A stretch of 64,000 nucleotides of DNA from an uncultured delta proteobacterium (GCA_963827685.1 CAWHBU010000002.1:960001-1024000), one strand, 5' to 3'. Positions 16,765-23,666 are shown, numbered from the stretch's first letter. Notes: generated by a model from the sequence alone, not told the origin. Numbers and translations are program-made.

Positions 16765-16920
16765 ATCTGTCTCCGCTTTCTATTTTATGCGGACATTATT
16801 TTACATGCTGTTTTCTATACTTTCGTAAAATTATGCCCCAAAGTCAAGGCCCAAAGCCAAGGATTGATTCATAGAAAGTATTATGGTAGTATTTATTCAT
16901 ACCAGGAAAGGAGGTCCAAA

Positions 16921-17157
16921 ATGGGAATGGCGGTTAAGAAGACGATATCTCTTCCACCAGACCTCGCAAGAGAGGTTGAAGAAATAGCTCGTGAAGAAAA
17001 GAAACCCGTTAGCGCGGTCATTCAAGATGCTCTTAGATCTGCGAGAAAGGAAAGACTCAAAGAGGAATTCTATCAGATTCAGAATTATTGGAGTCGCAAG
17101 GCAAAAGAGAAAGGGGTTCTCACTGAAAAAGACCTCGAAAGATATCTGAAACCATGA
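16921..17157 (+). CDS. Ribbon-helix-helix (CopG-like) antitoxin
   Basis: KKTISLPPDLAREVEEIAREE..VSAVIQDAL; AGGAGG RBS; ATGA overlap with the PIN gene. Confidence 0.8.
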   Translation: MGMAVKKTISLPPDLAREVEEIAREEKKPVSAVIQDALRSARKERLKEEFYQIQNYWSRKAKEKGVLTEKDLERYLKP

Positions 17158-17525
17158 GAGTCGTATTTGACACGAACATTTTCATTTCTGCACTTGTGAT
17201 CCCCAGGAGCTTGGCCGAAAAGGCAATTCTTAAGATCATCGGAGGTGCGGACATTTTAGTCATATCCAAGGATATCATTAATGAGGTTTTATCCGTTCTT
17301 TCATCGAAGTTCAATCGTGACAAAGAAGGTCTTAGCCATGTCGCTGTTATGCTTTCAGAACTTGCCGAGTTGGTAAAGCCGATTAAAAAAATCAGCATTT
17401 TCAAAGATGACCCTGATAACAGAATTCTCGAATGTGCAATACATGGCAAAGCTGATGTTTTGGTTACAGGCGATAAAGAGATGCTTCAGCTAAGAGACTG
17501 TACACGCTACCTATTCATGAGCTAA
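17154..17525 (+). pseudogene. PIN-domain toxin (VapC-like), C-terminus replaced by the inserted element
   Basis: MRVVFDTNIFISAL, DDPDNRILECA, LVTGDKE; last 8 residues (CTRYLFMS) are read from the element end starting at 17499. Confidence 0.8.
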
Positions 17526-18548
17526 AAAAAGGGGTAAAATTGGGTGACACTTTTTATTGATGTGAACCCTGATATGTCCACTGGATTGGAGCCAGGATTC
17601 CACCGCGATCCTCCAGGCTGATTCTCTGACAGCCAGTCCAGATTGATTCATTGCCAACAAAATCCTTTCCACCCTTTCCATTACCCAATCATAGATTCCC
17701 CTCCTTTGCCGTTTCGTAAAAGCCGGTCTGTTGCCAGATTCAAAGAATGCCTGACAGGATGTCTTCCCATTCAGGCAAGGCCGGATCCGATGGTTCAGAT
17801 CATTGACCGCAGCTTCCGCATACGCAGCGATATGATCCCGGTAGCCATGCAAACCCAACATAATTTTCTTCCGTAGAGTTGTCTTCACCTCTCGTTGTGA
17901 CTCTTCGATTGCTCCATTGTAGGGTGCATAATACTCCGGATTGTTCAAAGGTAGAACAAATGATTCGGCTAATACATCGTTGATGGCGGTGTGGTTCATA
18001 TTCCCTTCATTATCCCGCTTCAACACCAGAGGCGTGCCATACCGATCAAACTTCTCGCTCAGATATCCAGCCACCTCTTCTCCAACCGGATACTCTCCGG
18101 CCATCGGCAAAAACTTGTACCGCGAGCCCAGATCCTGCGTATTGTGCAAATAGATTTTACCGGCTATCCCCAGGTCATATGCCGTGAAGTCCATAGCCCA
18201 CACTACCCCTGGCGTCAGCCATTCGATCCAGCGAAGATGGGCACGGCGATCCGACTCCAGGTCGTGCCGTACCCGCTCCACCATTCGCCCCAGCTCCCGC
18301 CGTGACACACTAAACCGGTACCGTTGATATAAGCCGGTTGTTCCTACACTCCGCTTCACCCCATGATCTAACGATTGAACCTCCGTGTCAAGAACCGAAG
18401 GATCAAACGGTTGTACCTTCTTCGGACCCGGACGATTGATTAAAACAACGTTTTCCTTGATCCTGAAGCGCCACCGGTTAAAACTCGCTAAAGGGAGCTG
18501 AAGCGTCTTGCAAATCATCCCATAAGGCATCCCTGTCCGTTCCTTCAT
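17511..18548 (-). CDS. DDE integrase-core transposase 2 (OrfB-like)
   Basis: VWAMDFT, LKRDNEG and NGAIEES triad; frame stays open upstream to the A9 run at 18599-18607. Confidence 0.82.
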   Translation of the reverse strand: MKERTGMPYGMICKTLQLPLASFNRWRFRIKENVVLINRPGPKKVQPFDPSVLDTEVQSLDHGVKRSVGTTGLYQRYRFSVSRRELGRMVERVRHDLESDRRAHLRWIEWLTPGVVWAMDFTAYDLGIAGKIYLHNTQDLGSRYKFLPMAGEYPVGEEVAGYLSEKFDRYGTPLVLKRDNEGNMNHTAINDVLAESFVLPLNNPEYYAPYNGAIEESQREVKTTLRKKIMLGLHGYRDHIAAYAEAAVNDLNHRIRPCLNGKTSCQAFFESGNRPAFTKRQRRGIYDWVMERVERILLAMNQSGLAVRESAWRIAVESWLQSSGHIRVHINKKCHPILPLFLAHE

Positions 18549-18592
18549 ACTCTCAATCGTCTCTACAACCTTTCTGATCGCTTCTTGCCGAT

Positions 18593-18961
18593 CTATTGTT
18601 TTTTTTTAGCGCCGCCGCGGTCCCGAAACTCCTCATACACCCCCAGGAACTCTTTCACCTTGGTGGTCTGCTTCGCGACATCCAGCTTCTTCTCCAATTC
18701 CTGGATCCGCTCCAGAAGCGTCTCCTTCTCTTCGTCCACAGGCACAGGCGGTCTTCCCGCAGGATGATTCTCCAACGCCAGGGCCATGGCTTTGAGCGAC
18801 TTCTCCTCCCACTCGTAATACGTCTTGCGCGACACCCCCAGCCGCTGCGCTCCCTCCTTTGCAGTTAAGGCTCCACTGCGCACCTGGAGAATCACCAGCG
18901 CCCGCTCCCGTGCAAGTTTCTGTTCCTTCTCCCTCTCGTGCCGCCGTTTCCTTTCCTCCAT
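18593..18961 (-). CDS. HTH protein (OrfA-like), probably fused to OrfB by -1 slippage
   Basis: TAKEGAQRLGVSRKTYYEWE HTH, GRP motif, coiled coil; ends GCT AAA AAA AAA CAA TAG; GGGAG RBS. Confidence 0.78.
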   Translation of the reverse strand: MEERKRRHEREKEQKLARERALVILQVRSGALTAKEGAQRLGVSRKTYYEWEEKSLKAMALALENHPAGRPPVPVDEEKETLLERIQELEKKLDVAKQTTKVKEFLGVYEEFRDRGGAKKKQ

Positions 18962-20579
18962 CCAAAATCTCCCTGTAGATTGTCAGACCTTCTTCTCTGC
19001 CCCAACCTCCTTCAACTCTCCTGGCTTGGCCACCGGACTTCCCTGCAGTCTCGCCAAACGCCGCTCCAATCCTTTCATCGCTCCTCCCTTGCTCTTCCGC
19101 TCCAACAATACCGCAAGACGCGAGTTCAATGCCACTCTCTTCTCCATCACCGCAACCCGTGACTGCAATGCCAAGAGCATCCCCTCCATCGCCCGCTCCT
19201 GCCACTGGTTCAATAAACTCCACGCGACTCCCAACTCCTGGCAAACCTCTCCGGGTTTGCGTCTCTCCGTCCATACCGACAACACCGCCCGGCACTTCTC
19301 CTCCGCCGTGTGCCCCGAAACCTTCCTCCCTCTCTTGTCCTCTATCCCTGACCTCTCTACCTTCGGCTTCTCTACCTTGTCCATCGCTCTCCTCCCTCTT
19401 AATAGAACGATCTTTCTCTTCTCCTTTGGCGCCAACTTCATAGATCATCTCCTGCTTTCCACCGCCCTCTTCATCATCCACCATCAAACGCAGCTTTCCC
19501 TTCTCCGCCCGTAAGACCACCGACTGCCCCTCCATCCGCCCTACCATGTAAAACGGCTCCCGCGGCTTCCCCCGCAAGGCCATCTCCAGCACATTCTCTG
19601 CGATCCCTTGCTCCATCGTCTTTCGCAGCTCTGCCTGGATCTCAAAGTACCGATCCGCAGGACACAGCCCTCCAATCCCCTGGTGAGGCCGCTTGTAATT
19701 GTAATACTGCACCCACTGCCGAATCCTCTCTCTCGCCTCCTCAAAACTCCCAAACTGCGCCCGTACCAAGAACTCCTCATAGATCGTCTTCCAAAACCGC
19801 TCCACCTTCCCCAGCGTCATCGGATGATGGGCCTGGGACTTAATGTGTCTGACTCGGTCCTTCCGTAACTCCCGCTCAAACCGAGTCGATCCCCGCCAGT
19901 TCGTATATTGCCGTCCCCGATCTGTCAACACCTCCTTCGGTACCCCATACTCCCCAACTGCCCGACAATACACCTCCAGTACCTGATCCGCCGTCTGGCT
20001 CCGGTATAACTCCAAACCCGCCATGTACCGCGAGTAATCGTCGATAAACCCGATCAAATAGGCATACCGACCCCCCAGGCGAAAGGTGAAGATGTCCGAC
20101 TGCCACAATTGATTCGGTGTCGACCGCTCAAAAAACCGAGGACGGGTGATGTTGCGATGGTGTTTCTTTCTGAAAGGAACAATCAACGATTCTGCCCGCA
20201 GCGTCCGACGGACTGTCTCCGGGCTCGCGCTGAGGAAGAACGCACGCTTTAAAAGATGGGAAATCCGCTTGACACCAAAGAGAGGCTCACGCTTCTTGAT
20301 CTCGACGATCTTCTCGCGTACTGGTCCGGGAAGCTTCCGTCGTCTCCCCGAGGATATAATACGATTCCGTAACCCCGCTTCTCCCCGTTCCTGATATGCC
20401 TTCACCCAACGACAAATGACATCTTTACTGGCTCCTGCCTCCTCGGACAACAAAGAAACTGGTAACCCTTCTTCTAATCGTAACTTCACACACCGAAGCT
20501 TGAACTCAACCCCATACCGCTTCCCATACCGACTTCCTTTCCTCTTGCCCTTCTTCTTAACTCCTGCTACATTCTCCAT
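18633..20579 (-). CDS. DDE transposase 1 (IS481/IS3-like) with long low-complexity tail overprinting two ORFs
   Basis: N-terminal HTHs, LWQSDIF, FIDDYSR, LTDRGRQY, GKVERFWKT, YNYKRPHQGI; AAAGGAG RBS. Confidence 0.88.
   Translation of the reverse strand: MENVAGVKKKGKRKGSRYGKRYGVEFKLRCVKLRLEEGLPVSLLSEEAGASKDVICRWVKAYQERGEAGLRNRIISSGRRRKLPGPVREKIVEIKKREPLFGVKRISHLLKRAFFLSASPETVRRTLRAESLIVPFRKKHHRNITRPRFFERSTPNQLWQSDIFTFRLGGRYAYLIGFIDDYSRYMAGLELYRSQTADQVLEVYCRAVGEYGVPKEVLTDRGRQYTNWRGSTRFERELRKDRVRHIKSQAHHPMTLGKVERFWKTIYEEFLVRAQFGSFEEARERIRQWVQYYNYKRPHQGIGGLCPADRYFEIQAELRKTMEQGIAENVLEMALRGKPREPFYMVGRMEGQSVVLRAEKGKLRLMVDDEEGGGKQEMIYEVGAKGEEKDRSIKREESDGQGREAEGREVRDRGQEREEGFGAHGGGEVPGGVVGMDGETQTRRGLPGVGSRVEFIEPVAGAGDGGDALGIAVTGCGDGEESGIELASCGIVGAEEQGRSDERIGAAFGETAGKSGGQARRVEGGWGREEGLTIYREILDGGKETAAREGEGTETCTGAGAGDSPGAQWSLNCKGGSAAAGGVAQDVLRVGGEVAQSHGPGVGESSCGKTACACGRREGDASGADPGIGEEAGCREADHQGERVPGGV
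18983..19384 (-). CDS. Small HTH protein of the element
   Basis: HTAEEKCRAVL...EVCQELGVAWSLLNQWQE transposase-type HTH; GGGAGGAG RBS before ATG 19384. Confidence 0.7.
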   Translation of the reverse strand: MDKVEKPKVERSGIEDKRGRKVSGHTAEEKCRAVLSVWTERRKPGEVCQELGVAWSLLNQWQERAMEGMLLALQSRVAVMEKRVALNSRLAVLLERKSKGGAMKGLERRLARLQGSPVAKPGELKEVGAEKKV

Positions 20580-20903
20580 GGGTACACTCCTTTCTCCTTC
20601 TCAGGAGTGTCACCCATTTCTCCCTTCTTCTTTAGCTTACGATCTGGTAGTTAGCTCATTTTTTTCCCTGATAAATAGATTCATGAAATAGATGCCAAAG
20701 GAATTCTTTCCTTTCAAAAAGTGAATTTGAAGAAATGATGGACTTATGTATTATAATTACTAAGGTGTCCATAATTGAGCAGGCATATTGTTCTGAAAAT
20801 CTCCCCTAACCCCTCTTTTCCAAAGAGGGGGAGTTCTTCCTTTTTCTAAGAGGAGGCAGGGATTTAATCTTCAATGTCTACGTAATTATTGAGTAATCAT
20901 TCG

Positions 20904-23666
20904 ATGGAAAAGTTTATCGAGATTATTGGAGCGAAGTCTCACAACCTCAAGAATATCAACTGTCGAATTCCAAGAGGAAAGATCACGGTCATCACAGGTG
21001 TCTCCGGGTCGGGCAAATCAACTCTTGCTTTTGACACCCTCTTCGCGGAGGGGCAGAGACGTTACATTGAATCCCTCTCCACTTATGCCCGGCAATTTTT
21101 AGAGAAGATGGACCGGCCTGATGTAGAGGCTATCCATGGAATCCCCCCTGCCATTGCGATTGAGCAGAAGAATAGTGTAAAGAATGCCCGTTCCACGGTT
21201 GGAACAGCTTCTGAGATTTATGACTACCTCAGGCTCCTCTTCGCCAAGATCGGTGAAGTCTTCTGCCCGGAGTGCCATATCAAAGTCTCAGGAGATACTG
21301 TGGAGAGCGTTGTCGAACAGATCCTGATTCAATTTAAAGGAGTAAAGATTTTCATCCTCAGCCCGGTTTCTCTCGGCGACGGCCAGGAAAGAGAGCTTAA
21401 GGTAAAAGATCTCATCAAAAATGGTTATTACCGAATCTGGGAGAAAGGGCAGATTCTTGATCTCACCAGCCTCCCTCTTCCTGAAATTGTACGTCGGAAG
21501 ACGCTCTCCGTTCTTATCGACCGGCTTATCTCCGAAGATAAGGAAAGATCAAGGCTATCCGAAGCCATTCAGAGAGGGTTTCAAATAGGGAATGGTAAAA
21601 TTGAAGTGCTTACTGAGCACGGTAAGAGAATGACCTTCAACAGGAGTTTCTCCTGTAATCGCTGTGGACGAAACTTTTCAGAGCCTGAGCCCCTTCTCTT
21701 CTCGTTTAACAGCCCTCTCGGGGCCTGCCGTGTGTGCCAGGGTTTTGGCAGGATCATCGGGATTGATTGGCAGAAGGTCATCCCGGACCCGAAAAAAACA
21801 TTGAAAGAAAAACCCTTTGCCCCCTGGAACACGCCTGCCTATCAAGACCTGTATGAATACCTATGGGAGGCCTGTCGGAGGCACAAAATTCCAATCCAAA
21901 AACCGTTTGAAGAACTTCTCCCTCATCAGAAAGAGATCTTGATTAATGGGAAAGGGGAGTTCATCGGTCTAAAAGGATTCTTTGAATGGATGGAGGGAAA
22001 GCGATACAAGGTTCACTACCGAGTCTTCCTCAGCAAATACCGAGCCTACACCCCCTGCCCTGTTTGCCACAATACCCGACTCAAAGAGGAAGCACTTTAT
22101 GTGTTCCTGGCGGGAAAGAACATTGCTGAGCTTTGCGAGATGCCCATTTCAGATCTTCGAATGTTCTTTAAAGATTTGCCAATTAGAGATTTTCAAAAGA
22201 AAGTTGGGGAACGTCTCCTTAAAGAGATTAACGATCGAATCGGATTCATGGTGGATGTTGGATTAGGGTACTTAACTCTCTCCCGTCAAACCAGAACTCT
22301 CTCCAGCGGCGAATATCAACGGATCACATTGGCAAGATCGCTCGGTTCGGCTCTAACTGAAACTCTCTATGTCTTAGATGAGCCGAGTATTGGCCTCCAT
22401 GCGAGGGATACCCATCGTCTCCTTCGGTCCCTTCGGAAATTACGAGAAGGAGGAAACACGGTGGTCGTAGTAGAACACGATCCGGATGTGATACGAGCAG
22501 CCGATGAAGTCATTGACCTTGGCCCTGGCGCCGGAAGATGGGGAGGTTCTATGGTCTTTCAAGGGGGATTAGAATCCCTTCTGAAAAACCAGGATTCGAT
22601 TACAGCCCGCTACTTGAGGGATGGAACGATTTCTGCTCTAACCAGGTCTCTTAGAAAACCGCAGGGATGGATCTCCATTCGCAACGCACGGGAGCACAAT
22701 CTTAAAGGAATCGATGTCAGGATTCCATTGGGCGTGATGGTTTGTATCACTGGCGTCTCCGGAGCCGGAAAGACTACCTTGGTTCACAACATTCTATACG
22801 CAGGAGCAAAGGGAAATGGAAACTCAGGCTTTGAAAAAGGGGCTTTTGATTCCATCAAAGGTCTTGAACAGGTCGATGATCTCATCCTGGTCGATCAATC
22901 TCCCATCGGGAAAAGCCTTCGATCCAACCCGGCCACTTATGTCAAAGTATTCAGTGAGATTCGGGATCTCTTTGCTCTCACCCGGGAGGCCAAAAGATTA
23001 GGGTTCAAACCCCGCCACTTCTCTTTTAATACAGAAGGGGGCCGATGTGAAACCTGCCAGGGCGCAGGATTTCAAGTTCTGGACATGCAATTCTTGGAGG
23101 ATGTCACGATCACCTGCGAAACGTGCGAAGGGAAAAGATTTCGACCCGAGATTCTCAAAGTGAAGTATCGAGATAAGAATATTTCAGAAGTATTAAATAT
23201 GACGGTTGATGAGGCCGTCACTTTCTTTCAAACCCACAGACGGATTCTTTCAAAACTTCAAATCTTTAAAGATGTCGGCTTAGGCTATCTCAGCCTCGGC
23301 CAGTCCACCAATACGCTGAGCGGAGGAGAATCACAGCGCTTAAAACTGGCTCAGCATATCGGCCAAAGCAAAACAGGAAAAAATCTCTTCATCTTTGACG
23401 AACCCACAACAGGTCTCCATATGGCCGATGTCGAACTCCTTCTTATGACCTTCCAGCAGCTTCTTTCCCAAGGCCATTCGATCATCGTGATCGAACACAA
23501 CTTAGACCTCATCCAACGTGCAGACTATATCATTGATTTGGGACCGGAAGGAGGGGAAGAAGGAGGAAGGATTATTGCGGAAGGCGATCTCAAAACGATC
23601 ATTGCTTCGCAACAATCCTACACTGGGGAGTTTTTGAGGCAACGCCTGAACGAAACAAAGGTTTAG
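20904..23666 (+). CDS. uvrA: Excinuclease ABC subunit A
   Basis: GVSGSGKSTLAFDTLFAEGQRRYIESLS, zinc fingers, LFSFNSP, second Walker A GVSGAGKTT, LSGGESQRLKLA. Confidence 0.96.
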   Translation: MEKFIEIIGAKSHNLKNINCRIPRGKITVITGVSGSGKSTLAFDTLFAEGQRRYIESLSTYARQFLEKMDRPDVEAIHGIPPAIAIEQKNSVKNARSTVGTASEIYDYLRLLFAKIGEVFCPECHIKVSGDTVESVVEQILIQFKGVKIFILSPVSLGDGQERELKVKDLIKNGYYRIWEKGQILDLTSLPLPEIVRRKTLSVLIDRLISEDKERSRLSEAIQRGFQIGNGKIEVLTEHGKRMTFNRSFSCNRCGRNFSEPEPLLFSFNSPLGACRVCQGFGRIIGIDWQKVIPDPKKTLKEKPFAPWNTPAYQDLYEYLWEACRRHKIPIQKPFEELLPHQKEILINGKGEFIGLKGFFEWMEGKRYKVHYRVFLSKYRAYTPCPVCHNTRLKEEALYVFLAGKNIAELCEMPISDLRMFFKDLPIRDFQKKVGERLLKEINDRIGFMVDVGLGYLTLSRQTRTLSSGEYQRITLARSLGSALTETLYVLDEPSIGLHARDTHRLLRSLRKLREGGNTVVVVEHDPDVIRAADEVIDLGPGAGRWGGSMVFQGGLESLLKNQDSITARYLRDGTISALTRSLRKPQGWISIRNAREHNLKGIDVRIPLGVMVCITGVSGAGKTTLVHNILYAGAKGNGNSGFEKGAFDSIKGLEQVDDLILVDQSPIGKSLRSNPATYVKVFSEIRDLFALTREAKRLGFKPRHFSFNTEGGRCETCQGAGFQVLDMQFLEDVTITCETCEGKRFRPEILKVKYRDKNISEVLNMTVDEAVTFFQTHRRILSKLQIFKDVGLGYLSLGQSTNTLSGGESQRLKLAQHIGQSKTGKNLFIFDEPTTGLHMADVELLLMTFQQLLSQGHSIIVIEHNLDLIQRADYIIDLGPEGGEEGGRIIAEGDLKTIIASQQSYTGEFLRQRLNETKV

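Follow-up and report, generated by a model that had tools for sequence, protein, structure and literature searches.

Can one compact bacterial transposon carry two different transposases of the aspartate-aspartate-glutamate (DDE) type between a single pair of ends? The question is raised by a locus in a 64,000-nucleotide (nt) stretch of DNA from an uncultured delta proteobacterium (GCA_963827685.1 CAWHBU010000002.1:960001-1024000); this whole stretch is called the window below. A first-pass annotation, made from the sequence of the window alone, had pointed there to an element of four open reading frames (ORFs), with two dissimilar DDE proteins and two helix-turn-helix (HTH) partners. Textbook bacterial insertion sequences (ISs) have one catalytic transposase and make a short target duplication at each insertion. 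The analysis reported here indicates, with a probability of roughly 0.7, that the locus is an autonomous IS of a widespread family whose transposition module has two different DDE enzymes, namely an IS481-like transposase (T481) and a divergent integrase-fold protein (ORF1).

The unit, its ends and its genes

We searched the assembly with the DNA of the unit and found it at full length five times. Four copies were 99.9-100% identical (three on contig C2 and one on contig C3), and the fifth, at 83% identity, had all four reading frames intact. Identity between copies started at position 17499 and stopped at 20658, giving a mobile unit of 3160 bp with its genes on the minus strand and the same TG...CA boundaries in all five copies; by these limits, the coordinates and TG...CA termini of the first-pass annotation were exact. 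The termini are TGTACA... at 17499 and ...AGCTCA at 20658; one end of the unit reads TGTACACGCTACC... and the other ...GGTAGTTAGCTCA.

The two 52-nt ends form an imperfect inverted repeat, with 35 of 52 positions matching in an ungapped comparison, and because of this imperfection they had been missed by the automated repeat search of the window. They are terminal and about 52 bp long, not subterminal and about 45 bp long as annotated. The best interior match of either end was 28/52, which equals the maximum among shuffled interiors. Since the interior matched no better than shuffled sequence, the unit has a single pair of ends, without remnants of another, in agreement with the earlier view that it contains no internal IS ends. 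Each end consists of a terminal and an inner block (Table 1). This two-block plan was seen in 46 copies, in clade 2 and in the distant relative L171, in which the inner block is altered on both sides; the terminal blocks differ between left and right ends. The inner block of the right inverted repeat (IRR) also codes for the C-terminus of ORF1, and the ORF1 stop codon falls within the repeat (17511-17513). The inner block of the left inverted repeat (IRL) is predicted to pair with the translation start of T481, with an RNAfold energy of -21.4 kcal/mol in the window copy and -23.8 kcal/mol in L171, in which the two arms are altered (GGGTAACAC / GTGTTACC). Sequestering a start site in a hairpin is a well-known way of keeping a transposase from being translated from read-through transcripts, and the predicted hairpin between the IRL block and the T481 ribosome-binding site would act in this way.

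Table 1. Features of the element and of the adjoining host gene, in window coordinates
Feature	Coordinates	Strand	Evidence
Whole mobile unit	17499..20658	-	five copies with the same boundaries; also whole in other genomes and in metagenome contigs
IRL, T481-upstream end	20607..20658	-	terminal TGAGCTAACTACCAGAT block and inner GGGTGACAC block
IRR, ORF1-downstream end	17499..17550	-	terminal ...GGTAGCGTGTACA and inner GTGTCACCC block
Predicted hairpin, inner IRL block pairing with T481 Shine-Dalgarno sequence and ATG	20577..20617	-	RNAfold
T481	20579..18633	-	Pfam rve E=2.5e-15, rve_3 E=4.8e-17, HTH_32
T481 core, about 400 residues, HTH and rve	19380..20579	-	Pfam and NCBIfam matches, dN/dS 0.094
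T481 tail, frame open over ORF3 and ORF2	18633..19379	-	amino-acid sequence not conserved; variation peaks at first codon position
ORF3, 152 amino acids (aa)	18983..19441	-	HTH_Tnp_1 E=3.2e-5; dN/dS 0.26
ORF2, 122 aa, IS3 orfA role	18593..18961	-	HTH_28 E=3.3e-5, HTH_Tnp_1; dN/dS 0.216
A9 slippery run joining ORF2 to ORF1 frame	18599..18607	-	-1 frame, or one extra A in mRNA
ORF1, divergent integrase-fold DDE protein, 345 aa	17511..18548	-	weak Pfam rve E=1e-3; dN/dS 0.155
Host PIN-domain vapC-like gene, last codons lost to element	17154..17498	+	PIN_3 model positions 1-114 of 115

The unit encodes four ORFs in the same orientation on the minus strand. The first-pass annotation had described them as tightly packed and co-oriented; the co-orientation stood, whereas the IS481-like frame was found to overlap both HTH genes, with no earlier stop. 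T481 matched the NCBIfam IS481 model NF033577 over positions 2-284 of 284 with 214.3 bits (E=2.4e-63), narrowly below the cut-off of 224. Across 13 sequences, D220 and E260 of its triad were invariant and D162 was at least 90% conserved. The T481 frame is open for 648 codons, over ORF3 and ORF2, about 250 of them beyond the conserved core, and in 32 of the 36 distinct copies its length was 598 codons or more; most of the 120 best database homologues of T481 are 630-660 aa long. Permutation of synonymous codons in ORF3 and ORF2 gave an expectation of 7-11 stops in the tail frame, against 1-5 seen, mostly at the very end, and the stop number in the other off-frame fitted the shuffle expectation. 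In non-overlapping genes the depletion of stops was milder (0.55-0.8 of expectation, two lineages). The T481 frame ends at or shortly before the A-run that follows in ORF2, and in some lineages a single stop separates the T481 and ORF1 frames. One idea for the open tail is that T481 termination is coupled to this slippery site.

ORF3 and ORF2 share one frame and are paralogous (ORF2 matches the ORF3 region at 32% identity in L018), and the most distant relatives have a single HTH gene and lack ORF3. ORF2 ends in GCT AAA AAA AAA CAA TAG, with ORF1 in the -1 frame, and a run of 7-9 A was present in all 36 distinct aligned copies. Over the approximately 50 nt between this run and the ORF1 ATG, differences between lineages fall mostly on third positions of the ORF1 frame, and the window copy has no in-frame ATG, GTG or TTG in this stretch; by these two observations the stretch is apparently translated, and this requires a frame shift out of ORF2. 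L171 and L174 keep the A-run with ORF1 in the +1 frame, the opposite shift. Since the homopolymer serves both shift directions, slippage of RNA polymerase is likelier than ribosomal slippage. A-runs are reportedly used by IS elements (PMC1088944, PMC6211511), and IS1447 is reported to rely on slippage on a homopolymer run (PMC6211511). The main product of ORF1 is probably an ORF2-ORF1 fusion, with an HTH and a DDE part as in IS3 OrfAB, that arises by slippage on the A-run, and ORF1 probably depends on more than its own start codon.

The triad of ORF1 (D120, D179 and E215, with 35 residues from the second D to E) was invariant in 42 cluster representatives that share 30-44% identity. An NG-x-x-E motif and a lysine seven residues past E (K222 in the window protein, and K also in the consensus) were kept across the same 42 sequences. 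An AlphaFold model of ORF1 built from the 42-sequence alignment had a mean predicted local distance difference test (pLDDT) score of 91.5, and its best Foldseek matches in the PDB were retroviral integrase catalytic cores, such as that of HTLV-2, with template modelling (TM) scores of 0.86-0.88 and a root-mean-square deviation of about 2 Å. Comparison of T481 with ORF1 by BLASTP gave E=0.021 for a stretch of 72 residues about the first aspartate (32% identity). The annotation of two dissimilar DDE proteins, each with its own triad, thus agrees with the conservation of both triads. Prediction of a complex between T481 (residues 1-400) and ORF1 returned a score of 0.00, which gives no verdict and was counted for neither side.

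Linkage and selection across the family

To follow the four ORFs and the inverted repeats together, as the first-pass annotation had suggested, we looked at the five copies of the window's own genome, at metagenome-assembled genomes (MAGs) and at metagenome contigs. Besides the five copies, the full unit was present at 9 of 16 loci in species-representative genomes, the other loci being cut by contig ends or visibly damaged. It lay whole in one alignment in 34 of 80 metagenome contigs; most of the others start or stop within a few bases of a contig end, and in L094, L115 and L142 unrelated DNA precedes the element portion. A search of 5.8 billion proteins returned 1657 matches to ORF1, many of them on contigs of about 3.1-3.5 kb, and 475 encoding stretches occurred in metagenome contigs. 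ORF1 had no tblastn match in the PLSDB plasmids. Contigs from an RNA run matched parts of the element at 90-99% identity; such contigs are no measure of transcription.

We then drew 401 genomes evenly from the window's phylum and searched them with an ORF1 profile (E<1e-30) and the T481 core (E<=1e-50). ORF1-like and T481-like matches fell in the identical 12 of the 401 genomes, and in all 12 the two genes shared contig and strand, with T481 upstream of ORF1 by 0.5-0.9 kb. By the terms of the annotation, transposases found alone elsewhere with their own inverted repeats would have refuted it; neither enzyme of this clade was met without the other (12/12 genomes). The arrangement also held at great divergence. 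T481 and ORF1 had identities of 73% and 38% in L149/L171, and of 44-51% and 29-33% in L151-L153. In these relatives, at 29-38% ORF1 identity, T481 is still upstream and the end architecture is the same. A second phylum, that of L023 (labelled Thermodesulfovibrionia), had the family in 9 of 401 genomes; at each of the 13 loci long enough to judge, all four genes stood in the usual order, with identities of about 80% for T481 and about 48% for ORF1. The pairing of T481 with ORF1 is not accidental.

For an analysis of selection, we aligned 36 distinct full-length copies from the window's own genome, other MAGs and metagenome contigs using MAFFT. The aligned copies were 80-89% identical to the window copy, except for the own genome's three others, at 99.8-99.9%. 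Entropy peaked at the third codon position of the T481 frame to about element position 1280, of the ORF3/ORF2 frame to about 2030, and of the ORF1 frame from there on. Ratios of nonsynonymous to synonymous divergence (dN/dS) were calculated as Nei-Gojobori medians over 378 pairs of 28 lineages, after removal of eight near-duplicate rows, and ranged from 0.094 in the T481 core to 0.26 in ORF3 (Table 1). All four genes are under purifying selection. The conservation of the DDE residues and the dN/dS of both enzymes had been named as a check on the annotation, and both came out in its favour, with the triads kept and medians of 0.094 for T481 and 0.155 for ORF1.

Several loci depart from the standard arrangement. 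L005 (G000:C2:8693-11848) differs from the window copy by a synonymous divergence (dS) of 0.51 in T481 and 1.08 in ORF1, with protein identities of 91% and 74%, respectively; this unequal divergence suggests module exchange between lineages. An internal deletion in L031 (2993-4530) fuses T481, up to about residue 312, with ORF1 from about residue 162, and in L032 (1326-5213) T481 is interrupted by about 1.55 kb of foreign DNA. One and the same end of a Tn552/Tn5053-like transposon, with a TniA-like DDE protein and a TniB-like ATPase, abuts truncated units at L142:1-2640 and L025:670-3334 and meets the unit at two different internal positions in these two loci. We considered L115 and L142 as a shorter autonomous form starting at ORF3 and rejected this, as L142 abuts the TniA/TniB-type transposon and L115 offers only 45 nt upstream.

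Insertion footprint and the adjoining host DNA

We compared the flanks of 39 distinct insertions with at least 12 nt on both sides and paired flanks across insertions as controls. The longest direct repeat at the junctions was 0 nt in 27 insertions, 1 nt in 6, 2 nt in 3 and 3 nt in 3; in the mismatched pairs, repeats of 0, 1, 2, 3 and 4 nt made up 73%, 18.5%, 6.5%, 1.5% and 0.6%, respectively. Apart from a modest excess of 3-nt repeats, the two distributions are similar. No flanking repeat of 4 nt or more was found in the 39 insertions, shifting the boundaries inward by 1-4 nt gave none, and target duplications were likewise missing at seven clade-2 copies and at L171. A different IS of this genome, about 1.8 kb long, served as a positive control and had 3-bp direct repeats at all four resolved copies (AAC three times, AAT once), with a fifth copy unresolved. 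A further IS used as a control, with five copies of about 1.13 kb and CTAG at either end, was ambiguous as to duplication. Because the duplication is missing universally, even among nearly identical copies, we read its absence as a property of the insertion reaction, and we consider this reading quite probable.

Incomplete host genes adjoin the insertions in six cases. At the window copy, the element has taken the last codons of a vapC-like gene (Table 1), an intact allele of which is present in the relative L034 and, with 2 differences over 414 nt, in a contig of run X4. The X4 contig continues for 255 nt past the allele, and these 255 nt occur nowhere in 16900-21300; genes farther out on both sides of the window copy are syntenic in G010 and G004. 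The gene beside the L003 copy lacks its signal-peptide end. An S15 peptidase beside L022 lacks its N-terminal part, and the left flank there is unrelated to the N-termini of homologues. A large serine recombinase at L209 lacks the Resolvase domain, and DUF6930 at L024 ends at model position 60 of 123. The L021 copy lies between hsdS on one side and, on the other, hsdR from position 208 of 329 of its C-terminal domain model. The remainder of the cut host gene was not found across the element in any of the six cases examined, nor was a cleanly split gene found. This evidence is firmest for the window copy, L003, L022 and L021. When the two flanks were joined, open frames of at least 40 codons on both sides occurred in 9 of 27 insertions, compared with 31% of mismatched pairs and 60% of uninterrupted control positions. 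Junction-spanning ORFs had made L068, L136 and L209 candidates for clean insertions; none had Pfam support. At L068 the downstream piece by itself is a whole integrase, at L136 no domain was recognised, and at L209 the Resolvase domain is missing.

No pair of filled and empty versions of one site came to light, either with the left flanks of four copies (the window copy, L003, L002 and L004) in up to 40 relatives or with a flank of a G041 copy in 20; in none of these relatives did the other flank lie next to the one searched. Among the contigs of four runs over the region, none joined across the element and none contained a circle junction. The L004 copy lies 6 nt past the end of another repeat; therefore, paralogous intact copies could not define its target site. 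That repeat (G000:C2:594112-594505) is a deletion derivative, about 310 bp long, of the 1.8-kb IS with 3-bp repeats. On the opposite side of L004, about 57 nt away (C2:597729-598854), is the 1.13-kb IS with CTAG at both ends, which has five near-identical copies.

The vapC-like gene belongs to a ribbon-helix-helix/PIN (vapBC-like) toxin-antitoxin pair at 16921-17498. The region between the PIN gene and a uvrA-like gene varies within the genus, being 2.7 kb long in G010 and 6.8 kb in G004. Directly upstream of the uvrA-like gene, at 20754-20892, lies a dispersed repeat of about 140 bp that resembles a miniature inverted-repeat transposable element (MITE) and has many copies in the own genome (L006-L016), G010 and G004. 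It is an insertion polymorphism, because contigs from three runs skip it, with joints from 20759 to 20899-20902.

Competing explanations and relation to known systems

The anatomy of the unit and the selection acting on it suggest that both enzymes may be needed for movement and that the two-block ends may be recognised by different DNA-binding partners. Cooperation between T481 and ORF1 is likewise suggested by their conservation. Insertion without duplication, beside missing host DNA, would fit a strand transfer other than a tightly coupled staggered attack, possible routes being replicative or intramolecular events or an uncoupled integration of the two ends. More tentatively, T481 and the ORF2-ORF1 fusion might each serve a different end or strand, so that the ends are joined without a fixed stagger or at separate points and target DNA is removed; we regard this division of roles as possible, and on balance doubtful.

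Some findings weigh against an autonomous IS with two working enzymes. T481 is far better conserved than ORF1 (73% versus 38% in L149), as would be expected if T481 were the main enzyme. In addition, the remote relative L155 (ORF1-like, E=7e-27) follows an HTH gene, and the available upstream sequence (540 nt) contains no T481, which means that the ORF1 lineage can exist as a plain orfA/orfB element. The latter would suit a composite in which an IS481-type and an IS3-type element have merged and lost their inner ends to decay, one transposase moving the whole and the other set riding as a passenger. Each half indeed resembles a complete IS coding set (T481 alone; HTH, A-run and DDE), T481 and ORF1 are only remotely alike, and a fusion is plausible as an origin: the ORF1 lineage probably descends from a plain orfA/orfB element, and fusion with an IS481-type element is a reasonable but ancient beginning of the unit. 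As an account of the present element, however, a nested or fused pair of ISs appears improbable. No relic ends lie inside; the outer ends pair with each other, and one has the predicted T481 translation-control hairpin and the other codes for the ORF1 C-terminus; a passenger transposase should decay, yet both triads and low dN/dS are kept; and the two genes remain reciprocally paired in 12/12 genomes, down to 29% ORF1 identity. The first-pass annotation had also decided against one IS nested in another, and the missing inner ends, the reciprocal linkage and the selection on both genes bear this out. The imbalance in conservation could mean that ORF1, or the ORF2-ORF1 fusion, is a regulator that keeps its DDE fold for binding the ends or inhibiting T481. 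Inhibitor forms are commonly encoded by IS elements, T481 evolves more slowly than ORF1, and Pfam rve barely detects the latter. We nevertheless think this explanation very unlikely, because a pure DNA binder would not need D120, D179, E215, NG-x-x-E and K at +7, all of which are invariant in the 42 sequences, and the modelled fold of ORF1 is that of a complete integrase core.

The footprint could have a more ordinary cause, in that a short duplication is made and later lost through recombination between copies and IS-mediated adjacent deletions. Both routes of secondary loss, as well as IS movement with large deletions and without duplication, are documented (PMC11708052). Three observations within our data point the same way and count against a reaction that makes no duplication. 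Flanking repeats of 3 nt occurred in 3 of 39 insertions, compared with 1.5% in controls. In G646 (L207-L211), CTTATT forms both the last 6 nt of the left flank of L209 and the first 6 nt of the right flank of L210; this match could reflect a duplication split between copies, as in replicative (cointegrate or inversion) events, or chance. Host DNA is also missing at six copies, where the evidence for missing remainders consists of non-detection by Pfam and BLAST and is suggestive only for L024 and L209. Set against this, repeats of at least 4 nt were absent from all 39 + 7 + 1 insertions in many genomes and samples, including copies that are 99.9-100% identical and hence recent; the reciprocal flanks of L209 and L210 do not match; and another IS in the same genome has kept its 3-bp repeats in 4/4 copies. 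Secondary loss is therefore, in our judgement, rather unlikely, and we favour an autonomous two-enzyme IS that inserts without a duplication.

We compared the unit with four known systems. IS481 elements are about 1-1.3 kb long, with one transposase gene and 4-15 bp duplications. T481 resembles the transposases of this family (IS481 of Bordetella, ISKpn28) in spanning the whole model and in its HTH_32, rve and rve_3 domains, and the unit shares TG(T)...(A)CA termini, its ends TGAGC... and ...GTGTACA fitting IS481-type TG(T) inverted repeats. By contrast, the unit is 3.16 kb long and has four genes, a second DDE enzyme, a long overlapping tail and no duplication. The IS3 family has a DD(35)E triad with K or R seven residues past E and a target duplication of 3-5 bp. 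The unit has in common with IS911, IS3 and IS150 an orfA-type HTH gene, an A-run, an orfB-type DD(35)E with K at +7, the -1 frame and TG...CA ends; it differs in its extra upstream IS481-like transposase, its extra HTH gene and the lack of a 3-5 bp duplication, and the model NF033516 gave ORF1 27.2, ORF2 27.1 and T481 152 bits, with a cut-off of 160. Copies of IS26, in the IS6 family, often lack a duplication of their own and lie beside deletions, and a duplication may be split between two copies. The flank pattern of our unit is similar, but IS26 has a single transposase, and the IS6 model NF033587 gave T481 21.1 bits (cut-off 125) and had no match to ORF1. Tn7 joins one DDE enzyme to a restriction-like endonuclease, depends on the ATPase TnsC and on target selectors, and leaves duplications of 5 bp. 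Unlike Tn7-like elements, the unit has two DDE enzymes, and its ORFs matched only HTH and rve-type Pfam models, with no ATPase and no TnsA-like domain. TnsA and TnsB of Tn7 are a precedent for two different nucleases that break and join the ends of one element (PMC4678854).

The earlier statement that the element fits no named family therefore holds for IS481, IS3, Tn7-like and IS6 elements, from each of which it differs. No description of an IS with two DDE transposases was found in searches of full-text papers, which do not cover ISfinder. The parts are of known kinds, one an IS481-like enzyme and the other a slippage-joined orfA/orfB pair resembling that of IS3; the whole is apparently undescribed. 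Databases annotate the proteins of the unit as "InsO family transposase" or "hypothetical protein". Annotation thus splits the unit into separate proteins, and IS finders that rely on target-site duplications will miss its boundaries.

The family departs from both textbook rules for ISs, and it is abundant and present in at least two phyla. If insertion truly deletes host DNA, these elements would reshape genomes more aggressively than ordinary ISs do. If both enzymes are required, the unit would be a compact natural system for division of labour between two DDE sites at transposon ends. The division of roles between T481 and the ORF2-ORF1 fusion, with removal of target DNA, would, if true, represent a new mode of bacterial DDE transposition, a DDE-DDE counterpart of the TnsA-TnsB pair of Tn7.

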